64,000 nucleotides of DNA from Marsupella aquatica (lineage: Eukaryota > Plantae > Marchantiophyta): assembly GCA_973895155.1 (NCBI GenBank), contig OZ316896.1, positions 10,365,525-10,429,524 on the forward strand, read 5' to 3'. The notes under the pieces are model-generated. The model was not told the DNA's origin and searched no databases. It saw nothing but the letters and a program-made list of their open reading frames with translations. Positions 66-27,967 of the stretch are shown here, piece after piece; positions within the stretch are counted from its first letter, which is position 1; the number at the start of each line of letters is the position of its first letter. Position numbers and translations under genes: made by a program.

Positions 66-596
66 ATGCTGCAGTCCTTTGACATGAATCAAAAATCTCA
101 TCGTCAAATGATGATGGAGCGCATTGCACGTGCAAAGGTTATGAACCGAAACATGATATGGAGTCAAGCTGAAGACCTGATACCCGGTCTTCCGGATGAT
201 ATTGTCGAGAAATATATTTGGCCATTAGTCAAAGAGTTTTTCCACTATCTTGGGAATTTGTCAGATATTGCGATTAAAAATCGGGTCATGGACTTGATCG
301 CCATTCAAACAGTCAGTAAGAAGTGGTGCCACATAGTTACTTATAGTAGTACATGGGCGACGGTCACCTTGGTAGCTTACGACTTCACTGATAGACCAGG
401 ATATGAATCGCTTCGAAGGCATTTGACTTCACGGAGTGTAGCATTAAGATTTACAGAATCCATCAGAACTCTCCCGCCGCTGGACATTCTGGGTGGATTT
501 GAAGGATCTGAACTTGACACGTTTAGGAACCTTTGGTTTTGGTTAGATGAAGATGAGCGAGAAGATTGGGTCAGGATAAATGTTCCTAAAATGTAA
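66..596 (+). CDS. F-box-like protein, cargo of cluster A
   Basis: 176-aa ORF with LIPGLPDDIVEKYIWP...TVSKKWCHIV, resembling a plant F-box motif (LPDD...VSKxW). A homologous decayed copy lies at 16056-16599. Confidence 0.55.
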   Translation: MLQSFDMNQKSHRQMMMERIARAKVMNRNMIWSQAEDLIPGLPDDIVEKYIWPLVKEFFHYLGNLSDIAIKNRVMDLIAIQTVSKKWCHIVTYSSTWATVTLVAYDFTDRPGYESLRRHLTSRSVALRFTESIRTLPPLDILGGFEGSELDTFRNLWFWLDEDEREDWVRINVPKM

Positions 597-1379
597 TTCG
601 GCAAGACGCGACCATGCGCGTGTTAGTATTTTATAATAAACATTTAACTTTCAATATTTGTCTGTTTCAGAATGGATCCTACCGGAACCTCAAAGCGGAA
701 AAAAGACTCGTCTAAAGCTGCTTCTCGAAAGAAAGCCAAGACAAAAATGACTCCCGCGGAGACATCCATACTTGCATATCGAGGAAAGTCAATCAGAGAG
801 AGAACAACGGAGACAAAGAGTATCCATCTCTTTGAATCGACTGAGATATCCGATTTTGGAATAGTCGTTCGCAATGGGGCTGTCCGTCTTGTGGTGGCAA
901 GAAATGATAAAGCTACAGTTTTGGAGAGATCAAAAATTCTTGGGTGTTTCTTTGAGAAGAACATGAAAGTTAAAGAGTGTACAGAGGGATTGGTTCTGCT
1001 AGTCAGCGACGACCAGCAGGAAGACAAAATAAGCATTTGTTTGGATCGAACGCAATATGTAACCTTTAATCAGCCCAGAATCGATGATCTTCTAGGTGCA
1101 AGGCATGCCTTGGAAAAGGTTACTAGTGTGGGATATCCTTTCGATCCAGAGGCATCAACGGGAGATTTGATTTGTCAATACATTATTGACGTACTTGAGT
1201 TCCAGAGAGTTCCTTTCAACCAGGGATTTCGCTTGGGAAAGGCCCCGCCAGTGAGCAAGGTTGAAGTATACTTGGCTGAGAATCTTCCGAAAGTAATTAC
1301 CTCAGCGAATGTCGGGGCTCTGTTCGATTCTTTCCTCAAAGAATATAGTGCTGTGAATATATTTAATAGCAAGTCATTT

Positions 1380-1910
1380 TTTGTTGAGACATCACGTTGT
1401 CATCTTGCACCGGACCACATCAAGTGCCGAGAGTGGAATCAGGATTACACAGATAGGCTAAAGAATTCACTCCTCTCTCATTCGGCTATAAAGTTCGAGA
1501 AGCAATGTTGCTTTTTAGTCCCTGTGAAGTGGGTTCAGTCGGAGGCCGACAGAGATCCCGACTACAATGGGACGCCCTACGATTCATCGCCAAAGGAGGA
1601 GGACATTATGACCAGTCATTTCTGGATACTCGGAGGCCAGCACACAATAATGGCGTACAAATTGCTGAGAGAGGACGACAAAGTCAGCCAAGTTGTACGA
1701 GACGCTTGCGGTATTGTAGAAGCTGTAATGTTTTGGGCAACGCTCAACAACGACAATAATGTTCATTTGATGGGATTATCGAAAGCTCTGAACCACTGTC
1801 ATCAAACATCAATGGAAGAAGGATAGTTTCTCACCATTGTACGACAGTGTCGTAATATCTGGAACTCATTTGGGCGGCCTGGATCACATTATCGTCATCC
1901 AAATTGGAAG
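1380..1910 (+). other. ParB/sulfiredoxin-like domain in the cluster A gene
   Basis: IKCREWNQDYTDRLKNSL...FLVPV...HFWILGGQHTIMAY...LSKALN aligns with IRPVDRLHVENIK...FVLCV...YRIIGGNHAARA...LGFQDN in element B. The following VRQCRNIW matches VRACHNIF. Confidence 0.55.
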
Positions 1911-4149
1911 GTATATAAATAACCCTCTTCGATCACATTATCGTATAAACTTTTGTCACGCGAACGGTCGCGTCAAGCTTAGAATTGTCATGTTTCCATT
2001 GTTTTTCAGGTATTTATGAGAGCTACGAGTTTTGTCTGCCCATGGGCTCAAATGGGGAAGAACGAAATGATGAAATTTGGAGAATTGGCTCCGTTTCTCT
2101 TTACAATGGAGGACGAAACATTCAAGAAGTGGATGGAGGTCTACGAACGATCAAGGACAGGAGAGCTTGTAATTTACAACGGAATTTTACAGAGGGACGC
2201 CGTCAAAATTGCGGATAATCCATGTGCTTATCATCTTCTGAAGAAGACGTTCCGTTCTTGTCAAGGGTGCTTAGACTCGGTTCTTCGAAAGGCAGCGGAA
2301 TATATGTTGAGCGGAAGACTGTCTATACTCAAAAACCGAAGCATCAAAGTGAAATCTGGGAAGGCAAGGAAGTCCTCTGAGGCTCCAGTGTTGTCAACGA
2401 CCAGCATGAGTTTGGAGCAATTCTGTATAAAGAAGAAGACGAAAGTTGAGTTTGAGATTTTATTATTGAGTAAACTCAACGGGGAAACATCCACCCGGAC
2501 GAAGCTGAAAAGTCTGACAGATTCAACACGGAAATTGCGGGTCAAAGGAATGATTGATCGCTTTAAGCTCGACAAGATGGTGATGAAGCAGTTGAGAGAT
2601 GCGTTGAGTGGTTATCTGAAGAAGTGCTTAAATGTAAATATTAGTAATGATAATTTGTTGAAGGAGATCGACCCTATATTCTACAGGTTGGTCGAAGGAA
2701 TACAGAAATCAGTTGATAGTCAAGGAAACCAACTAGTGCGGCCGGTCGGTGAGAGGCTGAAATTGCGATCCCTGCAGGATATACAAAATGCTGGGTTTGC
2801 AGACTGTATCATACGTGAAGACAAGAACCTTGCGAGCTTGATTTATTTTGATCCCTCATCAATGGGAGATTTGCGTTCGCCAAATTGCTCATTCTATGAG
2901 GGGTTATTTCGTGCTACTAGCGAGATAGGGGCAAAACCACACCATGTGGTTATTATTGTAGCCTCTCCCATTGAGTCTTACTTAATCAAACGAGAATTAG
3001 GGAAGTACACACACTACGTTGCTGTCGATAGCCATTATATTCAAAGGAGGCCGAAGGAGAAGAAGCTTATTGTAACCTACGCTTTTCACAGCTTGGCCTT
3101 CAGCACAATGGGCGATCCACAAGCCCTCGAGTTCCAATTGGTCTCCAAATATCAGATTGAAAAAATATCCAATTTTGAAGAGAGCGACGAGTTCACGACA
3201 CCTTCCCCAGAAAAGATACTTCCATTCTTTGAAAGTATTGTTAGTCAATTCGTCCAATGTGGGGAATGGGCTATATGCTTCGGTGAGGGAACGAACTTGA
3301 TCCAGTGCTTAATGGTAAGTTTTGAGATTTATATTTTGGGGTTTCGATTTTAAGATTACTTAGATTATTATATTCTCAATTAATATTGTGAACTAATTTT
3401 CGGCTTTTTTTACAGGATGCTGGATCCAATGTAAAATATTACTGCCCTGTGGCAACGCATAGGGAGTTGTCTTGTTTCTTGCAACACACCACGGCGACAA
3501 TTGATACAACGCTGTCATTGATTGACCCAGTACGGGCTAGTATAGAAAAATGTATAGATAAATTAATGAAGTACCGTCCATCCGTAACTGCTCTCAGGGC
3601 TGATGTTTTGGATGTCCTCCACGAACAACATATCCCTGATAATATTTGTAATCAATTATTGCAAGAGTATGCACTCTCTGAAGATTCCGATCGATTGTAC
3701 ATTCGACCAACGGAGTACCCTAGTGGGCCAATCCAAGGTACGTTACTTTTGAAACCTCTTACTTTTTATTGCGTCACGCGAACATGCGCGTGGACATTCA
3801 TAGCATTTCTTTTCACGCGTGAGTCATTCTTATCAAATGATCTGATTTTATTCAGATCAAGTCGACTGCGGCTTCAATGTTGAGGATGCAGGGAGCAATG
3901 GTGATGCGGATGGTGAGGGGGAAGGTGACGCGGAAGGTGACGTGGATGGGGATGTCAATGACCAAGATCCAGAGTGGATGACCGATACACAGAACGACGT
4001 CGGAGATTCCGACAATAGAGGAGATGAAGAGAGTGACGGAGAGGAGATGAAGGACGCTGAGGACGCTGATGAAGAGGACGAGGAGATGGAGGGTTCCGAG
4101 GACGCTGAGGACTCTGATGAAGAAGCCACACAGGAGCCTCGACATGAGG

Positions 4150-4830
4150 TGGACCAAGAGGAGGCGGCCCGGCAGGAGGAGGCCCGGCAGGAGGAGGCCC
4201 GGTAGGAGGCCAGGCTGGAGGAGGCAAGGCTGGAGGAGCTTCAAAAGAAGGAAGCGGCCCGGCAGGAGGCGGCCCGGCAAGAGGAGCTTCAAAAGAAGGA
4301 GGCGGCCCGGCAGGAGGAGGCGGCCCGACAAGAGGCGGCCCGGCAAGAGCAGCTTCAAAAGAACGAGGTTAAGAAGAAAAAGGCAGCAGCTAGAAAAGCA
4401 ACTGCCGCAAAGAAGAAGGAGAAAGCCGAGGTTGAGAAAGCCGAGGCCGAGAAAGCCCAGGCGGAGAAAGCGGATGCCGAGAAAGCCCAGGCTGAGAAAG
4501 CGGAGGCTGAGAAAGCCCAGGCTGATAAAGCCCAGGCTGAGAAAGCGGAGGCCGAGAAAGCCCAGGCTGAGAAAGCAGAGGCTGAGAAAGCCCAGGCTGG
4601 TAAAGCCCAGGCTGAGAAAGCGGAGGCCGAGAAAGCCTAGGCTGAGAAAGCGGAGGCTCAGAAAGCCCAGGCTCAGAAAGCCCAGGCTCATAAAGCGGAG
4701 GCCGAGAAAGCCCAGGCTCAGAAAGCGGAGGCCGAGAAAGCCCAGGCTGAGAAAGCGAAGGCCGAGAAAGCCCAAGCTGAGAAAGCCCAGGCGGAGAAAG
4801 CCCAGGCTGAGAAAGCGGAGGCTGCGAGAG
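4150..4830 (+). repeat. Coding minisatellite (15-18 nt units; QEEAAR and AEKAQ/AEKAE repeats)
   Basis: Tandem GCTGAGAAAGCCCAG/GCGGAG and CAGGAGGAGGCGGCCCGG units, in frame with the acidic exon and probably coiled coil. Confidence 0.9.
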
Positions 4831-5845
4831 TCCTTTTAGTGACAGAGGAAAATAGGGCCAAGGCGGAGAGTGAGGCGGCTGAGAGGCTTCTGGCCGAGAG
4901 GATGGCGGACGAGACCGCAAGACCGGAGAGGGTGGAGGCGGAGACGTTGGAGGCAGAAAAGGTGGATTCCGCAAGACTGGAGAGAGAAGAAGCCGCAAGA
5001 CTGGAGGCAGCGAGGAAGGAGGCCGAGAGGGCCAAGGATCTTTCGCTTATTCCTGAGGCACAACGTCTACCGAAAATAAGGCTGAATTTGAAGAAGCCTT
5101 CTTCACCCTCAGTTGCAGTTAAGAAGAAAATATTAGACTATTTTCTTCGCTCGGAGTTTGAATTTAACGATCCACCCTTAAGTACGGTCTCGTTGGATGA
5201 TTGGAATAAATATTCACCGGAGCAGCTCCGAGTCCAGGCAGTCCTTGCTTTGCAATATTGGAAGGGTCTTTTGATTACCGAGGAGAAGACTGCCACTGCA
5301 TCCAGAATGGAGACAATCATCAATAATGTGCGCTTTTCCGAGAATCGAGTGCAAGACCTGGGAACGTTTTTGGCACCAGACTCGGCTCAAGTCGTTAAGA
5401 GACTAACAGCTGACTTGACGCGACCGGGTTCGTGGTCTCGACCCCGATATATTGTAGAGGTGACTCGCGCAAAAATTGTGGCACCGAATATTTTGGAATC
5501 GGATTCCCAGATTGTGGAATATTTGAATCAAATGCCACAACCATTTGAAGGTCTTCCCGCCTCATCGCTCCAACCTTCGCAAACTCGTCCGGTGGAGCGA
5601 TCATGACGGTCTCGAGGAGGGCTGAAGGATGTTGTTGCGATTGAGGCACCCAAGAGATCAGCTGCGAAAAGGCCGGATCCACCCAATCCAAAGGTCATTC
5701 GCAAGCTATAAGCTTAAAGTTTCTATTATAGACGTCATTATTTTATTATTGATCTGTTATTGTTTCTGTTTTCTGAGGCTACAACCCTTAGGCTACAACC
5801 TCAGTACGTTATTTGAAGGCATTCTGAAATCTCTGTTTTTTGCAG

Positions 5846-6634
5846 TTTTTTGAAAATTTGGCTAGTCGAATAGATCAATGCCTTGATCCTTCTAAGGATA
5901 TGGAAGAGCTATTGACCAAGTTCTTACAACACTCGATCAAGAGGAAACATATGATGTGTCTGAGACCGCGCGAGTTGCTCACCGATGATATAATTAACGC
6001 TTATTTGAGTTTTCTCGAACTGATTCTCGATAGAGTTGGAAAGTCAGACCTTGTCAAATTCTTCCAAACACACCATTTTGAGCTTCTCTCCATGGATCCT
6101 ACCATTTTCAACGAGGAGAGAGCAGCTTGGACAAGGGAGTTTCCGCTAAAAATCAGTGAATACGAGAAACTGGTCTTTCCAGTACACAATGCTGTGAAAG
6201 AACATTGGTCATTGGTAGTCTTGTATCCGAAGGAGAAACGGCTGGAGTACCTAGATTCTCTAGTTCATAATCGACAAAATCTTGGGGTGCTAGATATTGT
6301 TGGGAAGTACTACGCCGACGAAATTGCCTAGAGAATTGGTGTCAACTTGGATCTCTCAGGTTGGGAACGGATATATCGGAATGATATTCCTCACCAGAGT
6401 GACTGCCACAGTTGTGGTGTGTTTATCTTGAGATACGCCAAGTGCTTGTGTCAAGGAAACGGAATTAATTTTGCCGCGGATCAAATTGAGAAATTCCGTA
6501 GGGAGATAGTCTTGTCGTTATTTGACATGGACTTCCGCAAGCCAACGTCCGTAAGTAACCTAGTTACCGGGATCCGTGCTGCTATGATTGACATTTCCGG
6601 TGGAATTCCAGCACTGAATGACCGTCTTGTACAG
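5846..6634 (+). pseudogene. Ulp1/SENP-family (peptidase C48) SUMO-protease exon
   Basis: LTDDIINAYL, FFQTHHF, FPVH..EHWSLVV, YLDSL, PHQSDCHSCGVF. The His-Asp-Cys triad and oxyanion Gln are present. One in-frame TAG at 6329. Confidence 0.85.
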
Positions 6635-6720
6635 GTAATACACTTCATTTCAATGTCTCTCTTTGTAGTCACGCGACCGTTCGCGTTATAAACTTATTTT
6701 CATTTCTTAATGTTTTACAG

Positions 6721-7626
6721 AAGCCTATCCTGAAACCCCCTGATCGAGTATCGAAGGCACCAGTCCGGAAGTCCGGTGATCGTCCAGAGGCGGGAAACAA
6801 ACAGACCGTTCTAGTACGTTCTCCAAACCCTGCGGCACAAAAATCACAGGTACAGATGGCGCCTAATCCATCGGCAAAGAAGTCACCGGTTCAGAAGAGA
6901 CTTGTAATTTTCGATCTGAATCGGGTACTTATCTGGTCAGAGAAGATCAGCCCTGGGATGCCCATTCGGTCAAGGGGTGTGAGACAGATGCACAAGGTTA
7001 TCTATCCAAGGCCTAATTTAATGGAATTTCTTGAGAAGGTGGCAGATCTATACGACATTGCGATCTGGTCGTGCATGTTCAAACGGAATATTCTATCTTG
7101 TGTAAGGCTGATACTTCGACCCGAAGTTTTGAAACGTATTAAATTTATATGGGGACAAGAATCAACTCGACTTATTGGGAAGAATAATAATGACATCCCT
7201 TTATTTGTCAAATGTCTCTCGGACATTGCCGTCGATATTAAAGATTACAACATCGAGAATGTCATTCTTATCGATGACGCTGCATATAAGACGAGCCTTA
7301 ATGACTTCTATTCATCGCTGTATCCCGATGCATATTCTGGGCTCGATGATGACCTATTTTTTAGAAAGAAACTATATCCATATCTATGCGACATGTCAAT
7401 TGACAAGTTGACATTCTGCGAGCTCCTTAGTGGATATGGGATTCCAACGTTCTCTCAAGAAAATCTTGAGAAAGATTATATTGATAAGACGAATCTTTGG
7501 AGGAGAAACGTGATCATTCGTAATCAGGGGAATAAAGACCATTTAGAAAAGTTTGACGAATTTATGAAATACTTATCTGCCAAAAAAGACCGTGCTATAG
7601 AAGCCCGGGATAAGTCCAATAAGTAA
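6721..7626 (+). CDS. NIF/FCP1-like HAD phosphatase domain, copy 1
   Basis: LVIFDLNRVL, RPNLMEFLE...YDIAIWS, FIWGQE, KCLS, NVILIDDAAYK, LYPYL. Confidence 0.8.
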   Translation, partial: KPILKPPDRVSKAPVRKSGDRPEAGNKQTVLVRSPNPAAQKSQVQMAPNPSAKKSPVQKRLVIFDLNRVLIWSEKISPGMPIRSRGVRQMHKVIYPRPNLMEFLEKVADLYDIAIWSCMFKRNILSCVRLILRPEVLKRIKFIWGQESTRLIGKNNNDIPLFVKCLSDIAVDIKDYNIENVILIDDAAYKTSLNDFYSSLYPDAYSGLDDDLFFRKKLYPYLCDMSIDKLTFCELLSGYGIPTFSQENLEKDYIDKTNLWRRNVIIRNQGNKDHLEKFDEFMKYLSAKKDRAIEARDKSNK

Positions 7627-7751
7627 ACGTTTATTGTTTATTATCAATTATTATTTATAAATTGATTGAAATTGAACTTTTGGGAGTGACGCGCCCGGTC
7701 GCGTGGTTGTTTGCAATTGCATAATATGAGAATCGAATTGTTCATTTACAG

Positions 7752-8458
7752 GTGTCTAAGTGGAGCAGGTCGCGTCAACTTCTAGTTTTAGGACTGGAAA
7801 ACTTCCTGTGCTCTGTTCAAAATATACTCCTCAGCTCAAGTCGGCACCCGGAATTCGTATCGGATCTCTATGTGTCGTTCCGAGGCCGCATCTTCATGAT
7901 CTTATAAAATTCTGTTATGATCATTTTGATGTGATGGTCTGGTCTATTCTCGACGATAAACTGGTTTATCAGATACTTTCAGAAGTGTTGTCGAGCACCG
8001 ACCTATCGCAGCTGATATATGTGTTCACGTGGGATCATTGCTAGAATCTTGGTTATGTGAAGAAAAATTATAAGACTGTTGTCTTCAAATCTATCGAGAG
8101 ACTACGTGATATGTTTCAAGATTATCGACCAGAGAATATAATCCAGATTGATGCCTGTCCTTCCCGTACATGCCAGACAGCTGTATGCGAATTATTGTTC
8201 GCTAAGTCGTTTCAAGGATTGTTGGATGATGTCTTTTTGAGGGATGACCTCATTCCATATTTACGAAAGCTATCAAATTCAGGGCTTTGTCTTGCGTTCG
8301 CTAACAAGTTTGATTATCCCATCTGGTCGATTAGAAATCTACATCGAGATTGGGATCTGAACGAGGATATATGGGAGCATCTGTACGTGCAGAGACATGC
8401 GGATCAAGTTCTTATCAAGCACTTCAACAGACGTCACTTATCAATGGCCAGAGTGTAG
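7752..8458 (+). pseudogene. NIF/FCP1-like domain, copy 2 (frameshift near 7815, stop at 8042)
   Basis: After the TTTACAG acceptor it reads QLLVLGLENFL, then RPHLHDLIKFCYDHFDVMVWS, NIIQID, DLIPYL. Confidence 0.7.
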
Positions 8459-8534
8459 AGGATGTTTTCTCTGTAATATGTGACGCGACCATTCGCGTGA
8501 CTACATCCATACGGGCTCTTGTGTTTCTCTACAG

Positions 8535-9263
8535 GAGATTCATTGCAGCAGAGAAAACGGGCTCATAGTTTTAGACGTTGAGCATCTACTCTGCTACACT
8601 GCACCGCATTTCCGACTGATGGCGGTCTCAACTGGAATTCGGATTGGGAATATACACATTTTTCCAAGGCCTCATCTTCACGAATTCTTGAGATTCTGTT
8701 TTGAGAATTTTGATGTAGGGATCTGGTCCTCTCTTGGGAAGAACCTTTTAGATCAGATTTTAGCATCTATTTTTACTGCGATGGAAATGGCCTTATTTAA
8801 GTATATTTGGGATCAGTCTCATTGTTACTTATGCGATGGGGTGACATCAAATAAGCGGATATTTTTGAAGTGTTTTGAGAAGGTTGGAATTTATACGAAG
8901 GCGTATTTGCAGCAAAATATAATGCTTATCGAATCCGATGCATTTCATGCTTGTTTAGATCCTGTTGTTGGATCATTATTTCCGCCCAAATATTTTGGGT
9001 CGGTCGACGACAGTTTCCTGATTAACTTGCTGATTCCGTATCTTAGCAAGCTAGCAAACTCTTGTGAGCCGCTTGTCATTGCCAATGGAAGAGATTATCC
9101 AGATTGGTCAGTTAAATCTATTTTTAGAGATTATGATTATAATCATACTCTATGGAAAGACCCTGTGATTCAGAGGCATGGAGATAGATATCTAGTAGAG
9201 CAATTTAATAGACGCCCAATTTTGGGCGCTTCCAAAATAATAGTCGGCATGAGATCAGATTAA
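8535..9263 (+). CDS. NIF/FCP1-like domain, copy 3
   Basis: After the CTACAG acceptor it reads LIVLDVEHLL, RPHLHEFLRFCFENFDVGIWSS, YIWDQSHC, NIMLIESD, LIPYL, and is open to TAA at 9263. Confidence 0.75.
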   Translation, partial: EIHCSRENGLIVLDVEHLLCYTAPHFRLMAVSTGIRIGNIHIFPRPHLHEFLRFCFENFDVGIWSSLGKNLLDQILASIFTAMEMALFKYIWDQSHCYLCDGVTSNKRIFLKCFEKVGIYTKAYLQQNIMLIESDAFHACLDPVVGSLFPPKYFGSVDDSFLINLLIPYLSKLANSCEPLVIANGRDYPDWSVKSIFRDYDYNHTLWKDPVIQRHGDRYLVEQFNRRPILGASKIIVGMRSD

Positions 9264-9552
9264 TTTGTCTTGTCGTTCTAGAAACCATTTGTAAACTCCT
9301 TATATACTGGTTATCATATATAAAGGATCTCAAAGATTTATTTCTCTATTATTATTATTCGCGTGAGCATGTCTCTTGGTCCCGTCAAGTTGGATTGGTT
9401 AAAATGTGACGTTGCAGTCATTTTCAGGGTTTCACGTGCAGCCACGCGTCATGTCGCCCCCTTTTTATTAAAATAATAATATTTAGTGATTTTCAGAATT
9501 TCCAAAGTTCGGTTTTCCTTAAATTGGGGTTAAGGGTGCAAATGAAAATCAG

Positions 9553-10875
9553 ATGCAACATATGGAGGTCAATCATGGAAGAGTTGTGATGGATCTATCA
9601 CCAGTTTTGGATAGAGTGGGGCATGCAAGAGCAGAGCGAAGACGTTCACCAAGTGTGTCAGTGCAAGTTGAAGATGTACGACTCAGATTAGCATTTGATG
9701 ATATCCAAATCACTAACAATGTTGGGCGAGAAGGATTTATTGCAATAAATGAGAGTGCTAAACATGACAATGTGAGGCACATTGACATGCCCCATGAAAG
9801 GGACTCTTCACATATGGCACATGATCATTGCTCTCCAAGTGAAGTACAGGAGGTTGGAGGAGAAGAAGAAGTCCCTACTACAAAGAAATGTGCTTATTGT
9901 AGACAAGTGAAAGCATTGCACACTTTTGATGATGGTCGGGTAGCTTGTAAACAATGTTTGGCCAAGAAGAGAGACCAATACAAAAAGAAGAAGCAGCATA
10001 TTAGAGGGAAGGATCTTGTGCAAAATTTGCCAACTCTATTTGAGAGTGAATTTATTTTGCCACAATGCATGGGTACAAATGAAAAGGTGTTAGAGGACGT
10101 ATTACATCAGCAAACATTGTTCAACAAAAACCATGCATTCTTGTTTTTGGAGAATAATCAGATGCAACATATGGAGGTCAATCATGGGGGAGTTGGGATG
10201 GATCTATCACCAGTTTTGGAAGGAATAGGGGATGCAAGAGCAGAACCAAGTGTATCAGTGCAAGTTGAAGATGTACAACTCAGACTAGCATTTGATGATA
10301 TTCAAATCACAAATGATGTCAGGCGAGAAGGGCTTATTGCAATAAATGAGAGTGCTCAACATGGAAATGACAGGCATATTCACATGCTCCATCAAAGGGA
10401 CTCTTGACTTATTGCAAGTGCAATACAGGTCGTTGGAGGAGAAGAAGAAGTACATGAAAATGTGAGGCACATTGACATGCCCCATGAAAGGGACTTTCCA
10501 CATATGGCACATGATCATTGCTCTCCAAGTGCAATACAAGAGGTTGGAGGAGAAGAAGAAGTCTCTACTACAAAGAAATGTGCTTATTGTAGACAAGTGA
10601 AAGCATTGCACACTTTTGATGATGGTCGGGTAGCTTGTAAACAATGTTTGGCCAAAAGGAGAGAACAATACAAAAAGAAAAAGCAACACATGATCGAAGA
10701 GGAGGATGTCCAAAACTTGGGACCTCTATTTGAGAATGAGTTATTCTTAGCAAGGTGCATGCCTGGGAATGAAGAGGTGTTAGAGGGGTCATTAGATGAG
10801 CCAACGTTGTGCAAAAAGGACCGTGCATTGTTGCTCCGCTTTCGCAAGGCAATACAACAAATTGAAATTAAATAG
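9553..10875 (+). pseudogene. Probable N-terminal region of the Helitron Rep-Hel protein, with an internal tandem duplication and a CxxC..CxxC zinc finger
   Basis: Duplicated MQHMEVNHG... and KKCAYCRQVKALHTFDDGRVACKQC blocks. It runs toward the Rep region once the MITE at 10962 is removed. Confidence 0.55.
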
Positions 10876-10961
10876 AATATTGCCCAATTTGTGATGAACA
10901 ATGGTTTGAGATTGATGTGAAGGAGAAAGAGGGCATCTATGGGTGCATGTGTTGTCAAAAA

Positions 10962-11258
10962 CTCGGGGGTCTCACTACATGGGGACCTCCCCATCACCTG
11001 CGACGTTTTTAGGCCTTGGACCCCCTAAAATGTAAGAAAAAAATATTATTTTTTAACCCCTATAAAGTTGGAATATTCTTGGAATATTCCAAAAATTGGA
11101 TTAAAAAGGCCCTAATATTCTTATAAGTCTCAAAATTGAATTTAAAAGACCCTATTGTTCTTCTACAAAAATTCTTAAGTCTTCCCTTACAACCAATAAA
11201 ATGACCCTATCCTTCGTCGCACGTGATATGCCATTTTTGTGGAAGTGAAACCCCCGAG
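10962..11258. mobile_element. MITE, family 1 copy a (297 bp)
   Basis: TIR CTCGGGGGTCTCACT / AGTGAAACCCCCGAG and 8-bp TSD GTCAAAAA (10954-10961, 11259-11266). Nearly identical to 22188-22483. Confidence 0.92.
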
Positions 11259-11266
11259 GTCAAAAA

Positions 11267-16923: not shown

Positions 16924-17641
16924 ATGCTCGAGCGACGCATTTTTGTACCCTACTTGGATCCTCCAGAATGGGGGAATGGAGCCATGCTGGACCAGCTAAG
17001 GAGGCTGGATGAGTCACTAATTTTAAAGATATGCAGGCTGGTAGTAAAACCGTCTTACCATAACGCATTTCACTTCTACGTAGATCAGATAGGGGGAGAA
17101 ATTTATATTCGGTGGGATAGATATGTTGGATTTTCTAGAAGAGTTATCCTACTCTTTGTGAAAACCGGTGCAGTAAGACGTTTTATACTCCACTGCTGTC
17201 ATGTTGTGAAGGGCAATCCTGCTTATGATCCAGAATTCTATGCCGACAACAGACGTAGAGCATTCGATGAGATTCAGGATGTGATTGACGAGCTGGACAA
17301 TCCTCTTGCCACCGAGTTTTTTATTGACACTGGTGGGAAACTATATTCATACAAGATTCATCAACTCCCCCCCCAGCCGGTCTGTGCGCTCTTTAACTTG
17401 ATCTATGTAAGTTGCCTGTGGACGAACGTCCTTGCCAATGGTGAGATCTGTCCATGCTGCACAAATTAATGCTTGTTGTGATATTCCGTCATGCCGGTAT
17501 TCAGTAGCAGTAGTGAATCTTGAGACTGGTGAAGTTGATTTCCATTGGCTGTGGGCTTATGATCATCGCGTCACTCATATTCCCCAATGGCCCAAAAAGC
17601 GGATCGAACGCTTCGCTCTGGCAAGGTTCAACTATGATTAG
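16924..17641 (+). CDS. Unknown cargo protein (probably spliced or frameshifted)
   Basis: 181-aa ORF plus a following 69-aa ORF with protein-like composition; no family recognised. Confidence 0.4.
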
Positions 17642-20570
17642 GATTTAGGTTTAGGGGTTAAGGTTTTGGATTTAGGGTTCCGTAGCTGATTCTTTGACCT
17701 GTACACTCGGCCGTCAATTTAAAGAAGGCTCACTTTTGCGATAATTTTATCGGTCATTTGCATTGCGGGTCTCTTTGTCCTTGTGTGATGAGATGTCGTG
17801 TCCACATGTGTTGTGAGATTGGCGGCGATAATTTTATCGCTCTTTGCATTGGAATTTTTTTATTTGCAGACTTTGCCATGGCTGCTAGTGGAAAGAGTGG
17901 ATCTGCTGAGGCAGAAAGTCTCATGACAAGCCTCACCAATGCAATTTGGACGAGTGAAGACATTTGTGAAGAGGTCAAGTGTATCAAGAAGTCATGGTAC
18001 TTCCGTGACGCCAGATTACAGTCCACGGGTTTCAAAGATTGTGCTACCCCAATCCTTTGGGTCCAGTTGAAAAAATTGGTGAAGGTTAATGTTTCGTATG
18101 GCCCTGTCATTGCTGTTGCCGTCGTCGAGTTCATGGTTGGCCACGGGGAGGGAAAAGTGTTGACAGAGGGCCTTAGTTTCTTGACAATGTGTGGGCGCAA
18201 GGGTTTCACATCTCTCATTGTTACTCTCGATAACTTTGATGAGAAATCGATGGACAGTTATCCAGAAGATCCCCTTGTTGCCGAAGTTTGGGCAGCAAGA
18301 GAGATGAATGTTATGGGTTCGGCTTGGATCGGCCAGTATGTGCAAGATTGTGATGCCATCATGCTTCCAAGGATGAACGCAGAGTACAAGAGACTTGTGG
18401 GTGAAGAGTTCAAACCTGTCCGCAAAATTGTTTTCAAGAAACCAGGTTCAAGTGGCAGCGGTGGTTCTAATGCCGATAAAATATCGGGGCGGAAAGAACC
18501 ATTGCAATCCTCTACACATATTGACGTGGACGAACCTACAACTTCTGGTCAGGTTTTGGGAAGTGGAAGAGGGAAAGGGAGAGGTAGCGGCAAGGGAGAT
18601 GCCGCGGGAACCTCTGACGGTGGGAAGAAGAGCTAGGAAACTGGCGGTAGTGGGAGAGGCCGGGGCAACCGTCGAGGACCATCCGTTAAACCAAGCGAAA
18701 GTAAAGGATCCGAGGGATCCAGGCCATCTGGTTCTGGACTTAGCCCAAAGAGGAAGAGGACTGGCTGGACTGAGACGGTGGCTGCAGAAGTAGATAGAGC
18801 TCCGTCAATTCCATCAGTTCCAGTCGCGGTTCCTGCGGCGCCATTGGTAAGTACTACGTCGTTGTACTGTTTAACAAATACGAAATCCGATAAAAATCTC
18901 GCTGTTTATTTCCTGAATTGCGGATTGTGGAGTTATGTTGAACAAATGCAAACTCCGATAAAAATCTCGTAGTTTCTTTCCTTAATTGAATTTGCAACGC
19001 TTTTGTAGGCTGATTAGGAGGAGGAGACGGCTCTTTCGATGTATGAGACGGACGCGATCAAGGCAGAGCTCAGTCTTCTGATGCAACGAAGGGTGCAAAG
19101 GACAACTGTGCTTCTACATGTCGACAATCTCATATTTGATGAGGAGGGGGATTTGTCAACTTTGATTAGACCAGTGGATAGATTGCATGTGGAAAATATC
19201 AAGATACTTCTCATGAAAAACCCCACCAACTTCAGTGCCCCGTTCGTGCTGTGTGTGGATCCGAAGGATTGTCCCACAACCGCAGATTGGGACATCCTGA
19301 AGTCAAGGGTATGGAAGTATAGAATTATTGGAGGGAATCATGCTGCTCGGGCAAAGTCCGAGTTGTTTAAAATGTACGAGAAGCAAATATATGGTGAGCC
19401 AGAAGCTTGGGTTTACGCTGGGCTTACGAGATCCGAGGTCCGAAAGTTAGGCTTCCAGGATAACTATGACCAAGAGTATCGGAAGAACATGACTAAAATT
19501 GACCCAAGTTCGCGCTTGTCACAATATTTTCCTTGAAATGGGTGTGGGCTCGACTGAAGATGTCCACGAAGCATGTTGTCAAGAATGCATGATGGAGTAC
19601 ACGCCAGGAGTTCGTGACTCCATGGCCAAACATGATCCGGCTTTCCAAATTGCTTTCCGAACAGGTGAAATTTGGGATCTTCAGGAGCAGATTTTCCAGA
19701 TGTGGGAGAAAGGTATTGTCTTAGGATAACCCAAAAAAATTGTGGCAACGACGAACGCAAAGGGAAAGGTAAAACCTTTGACGGTAAGGGAGATTAAAAT
19801 GAATAAACTTGCTGATGACCTCAACTTAAATTCATTTCGAGGTCTCCAAGACTGTCAAATAAGAAGCATGTCAAGCGTCTCTTGAATAGGGTTATCGGGA
19901 AGGTGATCACTTTGGATCAAATGCACAAGGAAGGTGAGAAGTTGAAAAATCTTGCCAAGGTGAAGAAACTATTTTTGCAGTCTGGTCAGCCAGATTGGGC
20001 AACATGCAGAGAAATGTTTCCCAACGAAACAGATGTCTTGGTCCTTGGCATATGGGCGGAGAAATTGAGTGACGCGGTAAGCATTCCTCTCACAACATGC
20101 TCTATCGTGAGATTTTTATCGGCTTTAGCATTCCTTTGTTGGTTTCTAAGCGATTGCATCTATCAGCTAGCGCGCTCCATCACGAGATTTTTATCGGCTT
20201 TAGCATTCATTTGTTGGTTTCTAAGCGATTGCATCTATCAGCTAGCGTGCTCCATCGCAAGATTTTTATCGGCTTTAGCATTCATCTCACACTATTCTAA
20301 CTGTAGATGTGTCTGACATTTTTACAGCTGAAGATTAATTCAAAAAGGAAAAGCAAAGTGGTTCCGATTGTCACTTATAATTCTGCGGGGGAGGTTATTG
20401 TTCCCTCAGCTGAAATCCCTTATGTGTTTAAGAATTTTGTGCTTGTTGCAATCGATAAGTACAATCGGCTGAGGCCCTTAGGCGAGGGCACAGCAGAAGC
20501 GTTTGAACAAACATGGAAAAATGCAGACGGGGATTCTTTTCCCTACTATCTCCCTGGGTCCTCAGCGTTA

Positions 20571-21778
20571 CTAATACAAGGAGGACGTGTGAACAACGCA
20601 AGGGTATTTTTAATGTAATGCAAACTAATTTTTATAATAATTTTTAAAGTAGGCAACATCCATGTATATACATTTGGCACAATATTAGTAATAAGGGTTT
20701 TATCAAATTCATGCCACATTTATCTTATGCAAGGGTACCCAAAATGCCAAAGGACACGCGTCGCTATATGGTTGGCACACATGTCATCATTTTATTGGCA
20801 CACATGTCCATATAGTAAATCAGACATTTAATTATTTGTCGTCTTAAGGCAAGTTTGGTTTCGTGGGCCCCCTTATGGTGGGACAAATGAGTTTGGGTAG
20901 ACATGTTTAGGAATTAAGTCGGGAGTTGAGTACATGTTGGGTCAGGATCCTTGGGCCCAACTTGGCTGGGGTTTTGGGATTGATGGAGACCCATGGATCA
21001 ATCCCACATAGACGGACAAGATTACTTTTGAATTCATTTGAATCAAATGGCCAGGTATGAGGCCACCGATGAAGCCAGATGTGTTTGTGTGTGGAGGGGT
21101 GTACTCCCTTGATCATAGGGGTGGGGGGAGGTACCGGGTGCACAAACAATATTTGTTACAGTTCTCAGTAGTAATGTTTTTGGTATTATCAGTACTTTGT
21201 GTCTAGAATATATGATTAATGTGTGGTTTGATGTGTCAGGTTGAAAGAAGCTGCCAAAACTCTACTTATCATAATTTGGTGTTTATGGTTAATGTCATAT
21301 CATTCTTAGTCAAGATGGAATAATTTAGCAATTAGAGTTTACATAAGTAGTATATATGCAATTTTTTCTCCAGGGACATAGCATAGCATAATATTTCCTT
21401 TGTACTAGTTTAGTTTATCTCTATGAGGTCTACAAGTTACCAAAGTTATAGTCCCATATTGTAGGAATAACCATACTTCTCTAGTACTAATTTTGTTTAT
21501 GATCTATATAAAATATGTATTGGTATGAACATCAGACGTAACAACAGGTCCCCTATGCAAAATAAAATCTTATATGTTTCATTATGATATTTACAATTTT
21601 AAAAATTCAAGGGTGTTTTTAATTCCTTCAAAAACTCTGTTATAATTTACAAAAGGATAAAATTTAATAGGAAAAGTTAATATTTTTACATTAACAAGAG
21701 ATTTTCTTTTGTGAACAAAAATATTAAGAAGGGGTACACAGGGGGTGTCTGTTCTCAGGAGGGTTCACTTAATATAGT
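20571..21778 (-). mobile_element. Putative non-autonomous Helitron-like insertion in the MTase gene
   Basis: AT-rich 1.2 kb. The minus strand starts ACTATATT and ends with a decayed hairpin (CCCTTGCGTTGTTCACACG), about 11 nt, then TTAG. No TSD. Removal restores SSAL|KSEGPGYYLHVGD. Confidence 0.55.
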
Positions 21779-22187
21779 AAGAGTGAGGGCCCAGGGTACT
21801 ATCTCCATGTTGGTGATGTTCGAATTTTGGATTCTTTTGTTCAGCCAAGGGCTTACACCCTTGCGGTTGCGGATATTCCATATGGTTTTAATGCTCCTGG
21901 TTCGGAGTTTGATGAAGTGGCCTTCATAGAAAAGGACATTTTAGACATGTTGACAAGTTTCTCAAAGATGACGACCGCTAAGCAGTGGAGGTTTGTTGTG
22001 ATCCATTCACTACAACAAACGCATATGGTGATGTCTGCACTGGAGAGTGTATGCAACTGTGGGGTCGAGGCTGGAATCTGGGAGAAGACTAACATTCATG
22101 AGCGTCCCGCTGGAGCTCGATTGGCGTGGGGTTTTGAGAACTGGTCGATAGGTTTCTATAGCGAGGAAGGCATTCAGAACATGGACA

Positions 22188-22483
22188 CTCGGGGGTCTCA
22201 CTATATGGGGACCTCCCCATCGCCTGCGACGTTTTTAGGCCTCGGACCCCCTAAAATGTAAGAAATATTTTATTTTTTTAACCCCTATAAAGTTGGAATA
22301 TTCGTGAAATATTCTAAAAATTGGATTAAAAAGACCCTAATGTTCTTATAAGTCTCAAAATTGAATTTAAAAGATCCTATTGTTCTTCTACAAAAATTCT
22401 TAAGTCTTCCCTTAGAACCAATAAAATGACCCTGTCCTTCGTCGCACGTGATATGCCATTTTTGTGGAAGTGAAACCCCCGAG
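22188..22483. mobile_element. MITE, family 1 copy b (296 bp)
   Basis: Same TIRs as 10962-11258; 8-bp TSD CATGGACA. Removal restores the MTase frame IQNMDMYNFQPDE. Confidence 0.93.
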
Positions 22484-23375
22484 CATGGACATGTACAATT
22501 TCCAACCGGATGAGTCTCGCGTCAATATCATCAAGGTTCCATGTGTAACCAAGAAGTCCGTTGATCCATTGGGATTTGTTGTGAACCCGTATCAGAAGCC
22601 TGTTGGTTTGGGGGCTTGGTTTGTTTCCCATTTCTCTGAGAAAGAGGATTGGGTTATTGATCTTTGTTGTGGAACCGGATCGACATTACCTGCTACTCTC
22701 CTCAATTCTCGCCAGGGTTGTGCTGTTGATAAGAGTTCTGCGCAGATTGATTTTGTGAAATCCCGGATCATGATTCTGGAGTCAAATTGGAATTTATATG
22801 AAGAATCCCAGATTGAAGGGCACGGCGTTGAAGGTCATGAGATTCAACCACCAATTGCAGGCCAATTGGGTGTTCTCGGGACATCGACTTACGTAGTTGA
22901 GGTCGTGAAGGAGACCGAAGAGGAACAAGAAGAAACTGAGGAAGAGCCTCCCAGAACACCAAATGAAGATGATCTCAACGACATGTTATTAGATTAGTTG
23001 CGTGTGCTCGTTAGGATAATGTCAATCACCAATGGAGTTGTCGATAAATTTATCGGATTCTATATTCCATGAGGAAGAATCTTTGTCACCTTTATTAATG
23101 CGATAAATTTATCGGACTTTGCATATATCGGATTGTCGCGGTGTTCTAGTTGGGGGAATGGAGTTGTCGATAATCTTATCGGACTTAGCATTGTATGCTC
23201 TAACTGGTTTGTCATTGCAATTATTTAAAAAAAAAGATATCATTATAGCTGCGGAGTACATAGTCCCAGAACGATAACCACTGTACATATTCATGGGAAC
23301 GATAACCATTATAACTTAAACCTGCAACTAGCTTCGACTATCAACGACTACAGTCTCCATTGCATTTTGAATGAT

Positions 23376-26300
23376 TTATCTTGTTTGTATAGGGAGAGTA
23401 CTATTTGCCAATAACGCAAAGTTATAGGCATAAACGGCAGTTTCTGCTAGGGACAATTCATCCTCCAGTACTTTGCTAAACGAAGCCTCTTTCTCCGGAT
23501 AATATCTGCTTTCAATTGCAGACTCTTCCTCCGAATCCATTGCATACCAAGTGATTTTAATCCGCTCCGGGATGTCGTTAATTCTTGTGAGAATCTCAGT
23601 CACTTTTGCCATCCAGAATGGTCTTCCCTTGGGATCCTGATGGGCTGCTACACATATCATTGCAAATTTAGTATTCACCTCTAGATCCTTGAAGTCTCCA
23701 ATTTCCGTGACTTTTCTTCAAATTTCGAAATACATGACTCCTCACACTCGCTACTTTATCAACCAAGCTAGGTTCCATTGCTGCTTCCGTAGGAATACTC
23801 GGAAGTTCTCTCTGTACGTTTACCTTGGGCCAACTCCAATCAAAACTCCATTGTGCAGGTTTCAGGTGGTGCTGAATCACTTCTTTTTGTTTGTCAAAAA
23901 AACGACCCCACCATAGACGATCTTCGTCGTCAAAGTAATTGAATCCATCTTCAATTGCTCTTCGATATTTTTGAAGAGTTGACAAATAACTTTGAGCCGC
24001 CCGCTCATCTTGTTCCTCAGCATCATTCTCTTGCTCTTCATTGTCTCCTATCGCTCCTGTGGCCGACTTCAATGCCATTTGTGGTGCGACCCACATTCCA
24101 GATGATGGAATGTACCGAACAAAATCCACCGTCTCCCCCCAATCGGTTGTCGTTGAAAGATGTTTGGCATGGAATACGGACCGAGCACTTCCATCTTCGA
24201 GTACTCTAGTAATCCGAAATTGTTTTTGAGCACTTATGTCGTGGAGAGTACGTAGAACCTGACCATCCATATCCTTGTCATTTGCTTGATCCTTGTCTGA
24301 CACAAATTTCTTAAAATTGACAACCTCGTCGATGAAAAATATCTTTGCCGTAGGATTGTAGGATTCCTCTATGATTGCTGAAAGAGTGTCCAATCGGAAA
24401 GCTTTCCGCTTGTTCAATTTTGAAGAAAACTTGCTAAACATTTGATCAATTTGATCATGGGTGTGCCTCACCAATAGGAAACCAACCTTTATTTTCTGGA
24501 AAACACCTATCTCCACCAACATATTCAAATATGCCATAAGATATTTATTCTTGTTTTCCCGAGCTGTGTTATCAAGCTGGAGGTAAAGCACTGGAGGGAG
24601 CAGACCTTCCCAGGTATTCAGAATATGCTGGATAACGTGGATGGTCAGGTTGCTATCATTGTGAATATTTGGATAGTTCAAAAAAACATTTGAACTTAAT
24701 TGTTTGTTGAAGATCAAACAACCCACTACGTGTACGGGGATGAAATACTTTTCATCCATATTCTTTGGACACCGAATAAAATGAGGTAACTCTGTCTTCT
24801 TTTGATCCATTCCATCAATATAGATGCCTAAATATTTCTCCGGACTCTTGTAACATTTGCTCCGGTGCTTTGCTAACTTCTCCCTCTCGACGGCTTGTGC
24901 CTTCCGATGCTCGTTTAGCAATGTTGAGAATTTTCCTACAATAATAAAAATGTTTAGGACAAAACATGATAACCGCAATGTTGGACCCTGACAGCGATAA
25001 ATTTATCGGGTTCAGTATTCAAACACGAGACCGTAATGAAAAACCGTGACAGCGATAAATTTATCAGGTTCAGTATTCAAACTGTTCAAACGATATATTC
25101 ACTCACATGGCCAAAGAAGAAGCACATGAATACTCAACCCGATAAAATTATCGGGAGTAACACACAGGTTTAGAAACTTACTCTTTTCTGCTTCGAGTGT
25201 TGCCTTGTCACGGAGTGCTTTGAATTCAGTACACGGGGCGCAGGTGGAGAAACGGCTCCTTTTGGGGATGCGCACGCGAGGAAACTCCTTGTTCCAAATG
25301 CGAAGAAACCACGAATATGTCATGCCTTGTTCTTGGTGCATTAGAGTTTCAGACTGGAAGGCATCAAAAACTTCTGTTTTTGTCCAATTGTCAGGTAAAT
25401 GAAAGATATCCTTGTTGGGGAGACTCTCGATATTTGTGGAAAAAAATCATCTAGCCATTGGATGAGACCAAGATGTGCGGGTGATTTTTCTCGACAAACT
25501 GTACCGATCTGTATCTGAGAAAACATGTTTTGCGAGATTTTTTGGAGACGATTATTTCCTAGTGAAAATAATTTCTTAAAACCACTCCGACAAAAGGATC
25601 TACCGCTAACTGAGTAACCACTTGCACCAGCATGCCCACCCTTCACACATCCTCTTAGAAGGATGTTCTTCTCTGGGTAGGATAGCCCATAGTAATAAGT
25701 GCGTTGTTTCGTCACGGCTAGCAGACCCAAATTCCTCAGACAGTAATTATCACAACACGAATACTTATGAATTTCTCTCATTTTGTTTCTATTCAATTTG
25801 TCATTTATCACATTGTCTTTCCTAGTAATTCGGTCCCTACTAGGCTCATTTGACTTCTCTACAGCCTGAAATCCGTTCATAACATTGGCATTTTTGGGTC
25901 CTTCAGGTGCCTCGCGAATAGATGCATCACTCTCTGCTGAGCTACCATCCTCTACAAATCTCCTTGACACATTTAGAGGGGCACTGAATAGACGACTATA
26001 ACTATTCTCTTCGACAACTCCTTCTAAACATTCAGACACAACTTGTGCTATTATATCGGATTCTCTATCTCCTTCCTCATCTTTGTCCTCCGATGCACTC
26101 GACTCATCTGAAAACACAATTGGACTCCGTGGCTCTCTATACTTAACCCGAACGCCACTAAGACCTCTCCTCGATACTTGGAGCCTGGAACCAATGACAG
26201 TCTGCCCTTGAGAACTTGGAGATTCTGGATTTGCATGTGCAGTCCCAACGACTCCGCGAGCTGCTGGAAAATTGGGCACTTGTTCACCACGATTCCCACA

Positions 26301-26906
26301 GACCATTCGAGAAAGGGCTGAGTCTAGACTTCGCAGTCCAATTCCCTCGCTTGCTCGCACATCCAGTCCAGGCAATGCAAAGACCGATCGTCGTATTGGT
26401 CTTTGTATTTCTGTGTCCCGATCCTCACCCGGAGACTGAAAGATCGGTCGTTGAACTTGTGTTGAATGTGGCGACTTGAATGCCGACTGCGATACGTGTA
26501 TCGGTCGCCGGATACCCTCTCCATAACACGGGATGGATGGACTGAAGCGACATCTCGGACCTAAACCTGGGATTGAAAGTTTCTCATTTCTTGGCGATGG
26601 AACGCTCAAGAGACGACGCTTCTCAGGTTTACTAGGCGACACATAGTAAGCACTGGGCTCAGGACCAGAACTTGCATCAGAATCTGAGTCAGAGATTTCG
26701 GGCACTATTTGCTGTGAGAGAGGTAGAGCTTTAAGTATGCGACTTGGAAAACAGCGAGCAACAAGATTAGGAGAGGATTCAACTGAACTGGAAGGAGAGG
26801 ATTCAACTGAACTGGAAGGTGAATCTGTGTCTGATTGAGACATGGCTATCCGAGACACTATGGGGCTTTGCATTCCTCCCGCAATCAGGGAAAATGAAAG
26901 GCTCAA
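23376..26906 (-). pseudogene. Sola-like DDD transposase with long Ser-rich N-terminus
   Basis: CCDNYC...FCRSGFKKLF, RFSTCAPC, IYIDGMDQ, LYLQLDNTARENKN, FLLVRHTHDQIDQMFS. In-phase intron at 24936-25181; frameshifts near 25430 and 23675. Confidence 0.8.
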
Positions 26907-27130
26907 CGGACAGAATGTTGCTCCAAGAACACAACTCCCAAAACTCTACTCTCGATAATGACGCCAAAAACTTATCGGCGGTGGCCCTTTTATAGTGTCT
27001 GTTGAGGGGTTGGCCCACGTGTCCACTTTTGATTGGCTGTCACCCTAAACGACAAAATAGCAGAAAAGGGTATATTTCTTGGATTTCCAATTTCATTCTC
27101 ACACGTGCATCGTAGCAAAATTATATAGTT

Positions 27131-27335
27131 TTGAAATTGAAGCGATAAATTTATCTGATGTTGGTATTGCAAAAGTGGTTCCTTCATATGGAAGTTGCAA
27201 TTTGAAATTGAAGCGATAAATTTATCTGATGTTGGTATTGCAAAAGTGGTTCCTTCATATGGAAGTTGCAATTTTGAAATTGAAGCGATAAATTTATCTG
27301 ATGTTGGTATTGCGAAGAGTTTTCTTCATATGGAT
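27131..27335. repeat. About 71-bp tandem repeat x3, each unit holding the B palindrome
   Basis: TTGAAATTGAAGCGATAAATTTATCTGATGTTGGTATTGC... is repeated three times upstream of the transposase. Confidence 0.9.
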
Positions 27336-27967
27336 AGGAATTTTAAAATTTAACCGATGAACCGAAGGATCTTAGTATTGTCGACTAGTATTTTTGTTGC
27401 CCGTAGTTTTCGCGATAATTTTATCGGACTGCGCATTGCTGTTGAAAGAATGGCATGTTGACTATGGTCACTTGCGGAGGTAACTGGTCAATTGCGGAGG
27501 TAACTGCAAGGTAAGTTTGACGAACCGTGCAGTAATTCTTATCGACTGTGATGTAAAATATTTTTGGTAAATATCCAAAAACTGAGAAAACTGAGATTGG
27601 GTCGGAGCTTTCATGGCTCAAATCCGGAGTCCGATACAGTTATCGCACTTGGCTCGAAACGTGGATATGGATTTATAGATAAGACCTTTCAGATATCTTT
27701 GGAGAGCGTGAATATGAGGTTGAGGAGAAAGTTTTTCGGATCTAATTGTTCCTTGATAATATGAATGTTTGTTAGCATGAATTTCATTGGTTTTGATCAT
27801 TATTAAATTTGCTGTTTCAATCCGAACTCCGATACGAATTACATTATTTCCCCAAAAACGTGTTTTTGATGAAAAAAACTGCCGATTTCGCGAGATTCGG
27901 CGGAAAATGAAAATAAACTTCTCGTTTAGAGGAAATAGTTCTTGTTCGGTCCGAAATCGTGTTCTTA

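Follow-up and report, generated by a model that had tools for sequence, protein, structure and literature searches.

Two plant transposon families combine putative ParB-like fusion genes with repeated, family-specific 16-bp palindromes

Two decayed DNA transposons of the liverwort Marsupella aquatica each carry their own repeated 16-bp palindrome in the introns and spacers around a putative ParB-like fusion gene. Both lie in a window of 64,000 nucleotides (contig OZ316896.1, positions 10,365,525 to 10,429,524), the whole stretch of DNA analysed here. Element A, whose left part lies outside the window, ends at about 9531, and element B spans 14615–27963. The window content is eukaryotic and plant-type: introns are of GT-AG type, and there are a Helitron, a Copia-like element and a basic helix-loop-helix (bHLH)-like open reading frame (ORF), the Copia and bHLH labels being assigned by eye. 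We lean towards a reading in which the predicted ParB domain binds its cognate palindrome, without a cytidine triphosphate (CTP) clamp, and would bring an effector that differs by family to the chromatin of its own element.

The palindromes are repeated and specific to their element, as the initial annotation had reported. Motif A, ACGCG-N6-CGCGT, occurs seven times at up to one mismatch in the window scan (six exact; range 606–9449), against an expectation of 0.27 and a largest shuffle count of 2. Motif B, SCGATAAATTTATCGS, occurs 18 times at up to two mismatches (six exact; range 15065–27646; 0.09 expected) and 22 times at up to three. Cross-scans found no motif A in element B and no motif B in element A, and the Helitron and the remaining 64-kb window contained neither. 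An unbiased spaced-dyad scan recovered both motifs. In element A, motif A ranked second, behind a 10-bp dyad of a coding 15-nt repeat, and the same scan of the Helitron returned nothing comparable. A GACG-N14-CGTC dyad found elsewhere in the window was discarded as the product of a duplicated segment (four sites, two near-identical pairs).

Palindromic sites avoid coding DNA, bearing out their proposed placement in introns and spacers. None of the seven A sites overlaps coding sequence (p 4e-7) and only one of the 22 relaxed B sites does (p 1e-8), the other 21 lying outside it; across A, B and three metagenome relatives described below (L001, L002 and L003), avoidance is significant at p 6e-6 to 8e-9. 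Motif A is present in seven of nine non-coding segments of element A, the introns 3315–3415 and 5694–5845 being without it. The motif-bearing segments have nothing else longer than 10 nt in common, for which reason an introner-like mini-element origin of the A sites was rejected.

Both elements have the transposon context that had been proposed for them. B has 32-nt terminal inverted repeats (TIRs; AACAC...GTGTT), a 4-bp target-site duplication (TSD), CTTA, on both sides and a DUF7869 transposase. It interrupts the helicase of the Helitron, which reads through after removal of B and one CTTA. By its sequence features B is a predicted Sola1-type transposon, now decayed; DUF7869 we take to be tied to Sola-type transposases, the assignment being a PF25273 match. 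In three public runs, other B copies are free of both nested insertions and have no frameshift at 19503, 19849 or 19980, so the window contains a dead member of a multicopy family. Element A is a second multicopy element, likewise present as a decayed copy. Its right end, formerly placed at 9263, lies at about 9531, where the loose ends of six contigs diverge and depth falls in the last bin. The termini of A and B are similar and of AAC type, A being known from its right end, which resembles the TIR of B (its left end and any transposase lie beyond the window).

The gene sets described for A and B were found, but neither gene copy is intact. An F-box-like ORF occurs in both, and the pair is homologous (27% identity, tblastn E 2.5e-8), although the F-box assignment itself falls under the Pfam cut-off (E 0.02). 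Splice structures of the A and B fusion genes are predicted from GT-AG sites and reading frame. In the A gene, Peptidase_C48 and NIF score above the Pfam cut-off, giving an Ulp1/NIF fusion that is absent from the initial annotation. Three NIF/FCP1-like domains stand in tandem at 6721–9263, with the altered motifs FDLNRV and LDVEHL; the canonical form is DxDx(T/V), and the A domains are possibly pseudo-phosphatases, to judge from these motifs.

The ParB call is better supported for B and its relatives than for A, where it is weak. A fold model of P0001, a relative 83% identical to the B exon piece, was matched by Foldseek to ParB, Noc, PadC, Spo0J or pNOB8 ParB in all 16 listed rows above rank 25. 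KorB is also among its structural neighbours, and viral hits are largely ParB-like where named. A candidate helix-turn-helix region similar to HTH_ParB follows: PF17762 matched L002 with E 8.6e-4 and 19.9 bits (cut-off 22.6), matches were weak in 6 of 15 members, and a PDB sequence search with L002 returned Spo0J, Noc and ParB as the top six of seven matches, over the GHxRAL helix. A ParB/Srx N-terminal fold in the B clade (B and its relatives) is thereby reasonably supported, as a prediction from a moderate model. The Atlas clusters nearest P0001 are fungal DUF3723 proteins (0.94–0.95), which suggests that DUF3723 may itself be ParB-like; a literature search found no paper with both terms.

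The methylase call, too, is better supported for the B clade than for A. PF01555 (N6_N4_Mtase) scored above its cut-off in three of three relative exons (L001–L003; 31.5–33.8 bits against 26.7), and the window B piece scored 22.5 bits. The B-clade domain has beta order, with motif IV, D[IV]PY, ahead of motif I, DLCCGTG, and the nearest PDB neighbours of the L001–L003 exons, weakly, are N4CMT and M.RsrI. It is reasonably supported from these sequences that the B clade encodes a predicted beta-class N6-adenine (N6A)/N4-cytosine (N4C) amino-methyltransferase. The methylase-like domain of A is degenerate (FDPSS, CFGEGT) and was missed by profile search, matching neither Pfam nor a hidden Markov model of the B clade.

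Among relatives of B the motif varies in step with the protein, which fits the earlier prediction. A metagenome scan confirmed five loci among 160 candidate stretches (L001–L005), whose ParB sequences show 50–62% identity to B across the N-terminal stretch they have in common. Repeated palindromes surround the ParB exon in four of the five, those with flanking non-coding DNA, with 19, 20, 8 and 3 sites at up to three mismatches in L001, L002, L003 and L005; none was seen in the 1,086 bp of L004. The form SCGA-N8-TCGS is common to B and these four relatives, and the centres differ. L001, L003 and L005 have GCGAGAC-NN-GT(C/A)TCGC, and their ParB sequences are 80–85% identical and form one clade (support 94/93, just under the starred threshold). 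L002 has CCGATGTTTGGATCGG, and L002 and B belong to separate ParB clades with separate motifs. The consensuses of the relatives were derived from the same loci, and the unbiased dyad scan ranks each first in its own locus. Motif identity thus tracks the ParB tree over three motif states plus A. Scans of viral and prokaryotic genomes found no relatives of the ParB exon, A exon 2 or the transposase; one further locus, L006, was dropped as a 17-residue chance match. A search for full-length spliced relatives among longer proteins found none, which is weak evidence.

Sites of the B clade are bipartite, consisting of the 16-bp core and a YATT flank. YATT stands exactly 6 nt outside the core and stays constant while the core varies, at 17 of 43 distinct arms in B and at 22/38, 18/39, 12/15 and 4/6 in the relatives; shuffles of the same arms gave means of 0.08–0.74 and at most five. 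The signal persists after identical arms are collapsed. In element A, a single family, YATT at this position was found in 0 of 14 arms. YATT/AATR is a candidate target for N6-methyladenine (6mA) deposition by the B methylase, though an unlikely one; another reading makes it a contact for a conserved second domain.

On these distributions, an origin of the palindromes as sites for host transcription factors, or as neutral products of local duplication, is very improbable. Part of the B and L003 sites do lie in tandem repeats, as duplication would leave them. Yet the motifs differ by family within one fixed architecture, none occurs outside its cognate element in 64 kb, the A sites occur singly, in introns that are otherwise unrelated, and the YATT signal survives collapse of identical arms.

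Site position also bears on which protein reads the palindromes. We think it likely that the ParB domain does so, probably as a dimer. Alternatively the transposase or another element factor might bind them, with the ParB-methylase as co-inherited cargo: TnpA and the AtMu1 transposase are described as acting on family-specific motifs (10.64898/2026.08.24.746577), B has clusters 300–1,000 bp from both ends and three sites in the transposase intron, and A and B have similar AAC termini. TnpA, however, is described as binding terminally (10.64898/2026.08.24.746577), whereas here the sites occur along the ParB gene, one or more to an intron, at distances of kilobases from the element ends and outside the TIRs. 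Many sites are 2–5 kb from an element end in B and up to 8.9 kb from the one known end in A, and no palindrome falls inside a TIR. A 16-bp dyad suits recognition of the ParB/Noc type, with its palindromic parS sites, and Plavaka/EnSpm elements, which have an unrelated transposase, are also described as having ParB beside inverted-repeat arrays (10.1101/2025.02.11.637652). Binding by the transposase or another element factor is, on this evidence, distinctly unlikely.

If ParB is the reader, the protein of each family would dock on its own 16-bp palindrome as a static targeting module, not a CTP clamp, since the GxxRxxA motif is replaced by GxxGxxA in B and by GxxTxxA in A. The fused enzyme would be brought onto the element's own DNA, much as VANC is: an amino-methyltransferase in B, and an Ulp1 small ubiquitin-like modifier (SUMO) protease with a NIF-like domain in A. 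Resistance to host silencing is one possible outcome. That the purpose is VANC-like self-protection or self-activation is a tentative proposal. A more elaborate version seems rather unlikely as a whole. It makes ParB an address reader that can be reprogrammed and paired with exchangeable effectors: the B methylase would write 6mA on YATT/AATR, A, its methylase decayed and its flank gone, would deliver a SUMO protease and phosphatase-like domain, and the result would be self-marking of bacterial origin against silencing in land plants.

Several observations weigh against ParB-guided delivery. Structurally, the best Foldseek E for P0001 was 1.5e-3, with no ParB match at E<=1e-3; in VIA, PadC (Z 5.5, root-mean-square deviation 3.5, 83 aligned) ranked third behind two designed helical proteins; model confidence was moderate (predicted local distance difference test (pLDDT) 59, predicted template-modelling score (pTM) 0.39); and the ParB recognition helix is not alignable. 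The CTP motif reads GNHGARA in the B clade and GQHTIMA in A, with the arginine absent from both, so parS-style CTP clamping is doubtful. Motif IV is D[IVL]PY in all rows covering it; the canonical amino-methyltransferase form is [DNS]PP[YF]. For A, hhalign gave P 0.024 for ParB homology and P 0.041 for methylase homology (with an Atlas N6_N4_Mtase lead of 0.85), and Pfam, PHROGs, NCBIfam and PDB returned no match to either. The co-evolution of motif and ParB is not proven, there being three states in which kin share labels, and shared descent of whole elements predicts the same co-variation. L003 has the same convergent transposase as B, and both A and B look Sola-like, leaving the transposase a possible binder. 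The window copies of A and B were probably methylated, because private C>T changes are enriched at CHG in A (12/19) and at CG in B (9/21), against context shares of 0.15–0.20; these counts come from 33 (A) and 27 (B) hand-picked rows among those listed, of about 900 and 1,360. Finally, there are exceptions to the CpG pattern described next: a miniature inverted-repeat transposable element (MITE) keeps CpG (0.82) and L004 does not (0.57).

Beyond the F-box-like ORFs, homology of A to B was undetectable between the N-terminal domains and between A exon 2 and the B ParB-exon profile, and the single-sequence fold of A exon 2 reached pLDDT 34. No ParA partner was found among the 26 window ORFs scanned, A being only partly in the window.

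CpG dinucleotides are retained in both elements. After masking of the motifs, the observed/expected CpG ratio comes to 0.90 for A and 0.81 for B; unmasked, it is 0.77–0.86 in L001, L002, L003 and L005. Comparison elements give 0.58 and 0.25 (Helitron pieces), 0.42 (Copia) and 0.33 (an insert inside B); other 3-kb stretches reach 0.8–0.9. The retention fits either long-term escape from 5-methylcytosine or recent arrival. A rival account of the palindromes is that ParB binds them for a mechanical or regulatory job, such as bridging or compacting a long element for synapsis or KorB-like autorepression, and not against silencing. It would account for sites that precede each gene and extend over the full length of the element, for KorB among the structural neighbours, for methylation-type mutation in the window copies and for sites retained in A despite its degenerate methylase. 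It sits less well with fused domains of chromatin type (amino-methylase, Ulp1 with H/D/C motifs, NIF-like and, in the description available for Bostrychia, 2-oxoglutarate (2OG) oxygenase) or with CpG kept relative to most neighbouring transposons, and we regard it as improbable.

Proposed as a candidate new system, this is not one: ParB with N4/N6 methylase cargo in Sola1, and ParB beside inverted-repeat arrays, have been published for algae together with the idea of self-binding. Sola1-1_Ec32 of Ectocarpus is described as a giant Sola1 with AACCG-CGGTT termini, a 4-bp TSD whose last base tends to be A and, on the strand opposite to that of its transposase, a gene for a ParB-like domain plus an N4C/N6A methyltransferase, for which self-binding and self-modification were proposed (PMC12477816). 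It resembles B in its AAC- termini, its 4-bp TSD with final A and its ParB-methylase gene opposite the transposase. Its available description gives no binding motif, whereas A and B add a plant host, F-box-like cargo, intronic palindromes that differ by family and, for the B clade, sites of two parts. In PAG3, from Plavaka (EnSpm) elements of the red alga Bostrychia, fusion of a ParB-like domain to a modifying enzyme is described close to inverted-repeat arrays, along with a parS analogy and a self-modification idea (10.1101/2025.02.11.637652). As described, it differs from A and B in transposase superfamily, in its 2OG oxygenase effector, in having the methylase on a separate gene and in arrays adjacent to the gene, and the description contains no comparison of motif with protein. 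The feature in A and B is a variant of a known, still hypothetical, kind; what A, B and the relatives add are candidate protein–site pairs, a bipartite site and an apparent effector swap. A literature search found no paper with family-specific motifs or motif–ParB co-divergence, a bipartite site or YATT flank, land-plant cases or the Ulp1/NIF fusion, in a search covering chiefly openly accessible literature, and the Ectocarpus transposable-element FASTA and Bostrychia supplements may already show such motifs.

Among characterised systems, A and B are VANC-like in having family-specific motifs in non-coding regions. VANDALs are Mutator-like elements, and neither a Mutator-type transposase nor a VANC-type family was found among the 26 window ORFs; B has DUF7869. 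In Arabidopsis, VANC is described as an element-encoded accessory protein of proven function whose family-specific target motifs lie in introns, spacers and termini and diverge along with the protein (PMC5735166). VANDAL motifs are, in the accessible account, short, non-palindromic and co-oriented, whereas those of A and B are palindromic, and no ParB or methylase is described there for VANC (PMC5735166).

Bacterial ParB and Noc are described as binding palindromic parS and Noc-binding sites (NBS), with a GxxRxxA CTP motif and a specificity switchable by a few residues (PMC7383237, PMC10419367). The B clade is similar in that a predicted ParB N-domain fold precedes a helical region containing G-H-x-R-A-L; the position equivalent to G201 is G in L001–L003 and H, R or N in B-type proteins. 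A and B differ in lacking the GxxRxxA arginine, in their fused enzymes and in having intronic sites in a eukaryotic transposon. For the methylase, MpDN4MT1 is described as a eukaryotic beta-class N4C methylase with TSPPY encoded by a host gene (10.1101/2021.02.12.428880), and bdelloid N4CMT (PDB 8s9m) is a eukaryotic beta-class amino-methyltransferase of prokaryotic type. Beta class and prokaryotic type are common to these, as far as described, and the B clade, which differs in D[IV]PY, ParB fusion and transposon location. ParB-HTH-fused methylases are listed for chlorophytes and chytrids in the part of the survey available (Iyer 2016, PMC4738411).

The two 2025 algal papers, in their available portions, guessed at self-binding and self-modification without naming a target motif; the window and four relatives supply candidate protein–site pairs with three related motif states plus an unrelated one, making specificity testable by cross-binding. 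If the favoured reading is true, ParB-guided recognition would join VANC and TnpA as another route to transposon self-recognition. Plant genomes would have in it a possible source of local 6mA or N4-methylcytosine, and its ParB domains would form a naturally occurring series of compact DNA binders with exchangeable 16-bp targets.

Table 1. Coordinates of the features of elements A and B in the window
Feature	Position	Strand	Remarks
A F-box-like ORF, 176 aa	66–596	+	homologous to that of B; Pfam F-box below cut-off
A spliced gene, predicted, 2,132 codons, 5 internal stops	672–7626	+	five GT-AG introns, one frame
A gene exons	672–1910, 2010–3314, 3416–3737, 3856–5693, 5846–6634, 6721–7626	+
A protein order			N-terminal domain, ParB-like, degenerate methylase-like, acidic/EKAQA repeat, Ulp1, NIF-like (predicted)
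A protein motifs	GGQHTIMA 1632; FDPSS 2847; CFGEGT 3276; Ulp1 H/D/C 6200/6248/6401
A further NIF/FCP1-like exons or ORFs, two	7752–9263	+	Pfam NIF E 0.0017 and 2.6e-14
A palindrome 1, F-box/ParB spacer	606–621
A palindrome 2, intron 1	1958–1973
A palindrome 3, intron 3	3776–3791		other copies have a second site near 3815 (insertion)
A palindrome 4, intron 5	6671–6686
A palindrome 5	7689–7704
A palindrome 6	8483–8498
A palindrome 7, subterminal	9434–9449		1 mismatch
A right end	9492–9531		inward AACCCCAATTT; resembles B TIR
B left TIR (AACAC...)	14615–14646	+	preceded by CTTA
B palindrome cluster, 5 sites	15065–15398		motif scan
B F-box-like gene, broken	16090–16600 (approximate bounds)	+	tblastn
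B spacer palindromes at 16634, 17738, 17825	16634–17840		motif scan
B ParB-like + beta-class amino-methyltransferase gene (predicted), three exons	17878–22997	+
B gene exon 1, N-terminal domain of unassigned family	17878–18846	+
B variant palindromes, intron 1	18887–18970		CCGATAAAAATCTCGC/T
B gene exon 2, predicted ParB N-domain + HTH_ParB-like region	19009–20076	+	frameshifted in window copy
B variant palindromes, intron 2	20107–20272		three 75-nt units
B gene exon 3, predicted methylase (DIPY, DLCCGTG)	20328–22997	+	insertions about 20544–21796 and 22188–22483
B palindromes, methylase–transposase interval, 3 sites	23041–23182
B DUF7869 (Sola-type) transposase, broken	23376–26872	-	convergent with ParB gene; PF25273 E 3.7e-48
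B transposase intron with 3 palindromes (24994, 25052, 25139)	about 24938–25181
B palindrome cluster upstream of transposase, 6 sites	26963–27646		three within 71-nt tandem repeat
B right TIR	27932–27963	-	followed by CTTA

Element B has further distinctive features. The sites in the introns of its ParB gene (18887–20272) are asymmetric variants, one arm being of the CGAGA type seen in the L001/L003 motif. Upstream of the ParB gene, a small cysteine-rich ORF (15529–15804, and L005:83–550) looks, by eye, common to B and L005. The methylase exon contains an AT-rich 1.25-kb insertion (about 20544–21796) with a 10-bp duplication, TACTATCTCC, and a CpG ratio of 0.33; it is missing from most other copies. 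The second insertion in that exon is one of two copies of the MITE, about 296 bp long (10961–11260 and 22188–22483), with ends CTCGGGGG...CCCCCGAG. This second copy has an 8-bp duplication, CATGGACA, and the MITE is presumably hAT-like; its depth is far above that of the rest of B in three runs.

The surrounding window is rich in other mobile sequence. The host of B is a decayed Helitron (9532–14614 and 27964–28200; DUF6570, Helitron_like_N, PIF1), ahead of which lies a duplicated ORF whose zinc finger is weakly SBP-like. A short segment within the Helitron (13966–14270), starting CTCGGGGGG, is by eye probably a further MITE of the same group. Beyond lie a broken Copia-like retroelement on the minus strand (55620–59103, by eye) and a duplicated segment (38044–38500 and 48365–49006, about 10.4 kb apart) whose second copy contains the bHLH-like ORF on the minus strand.

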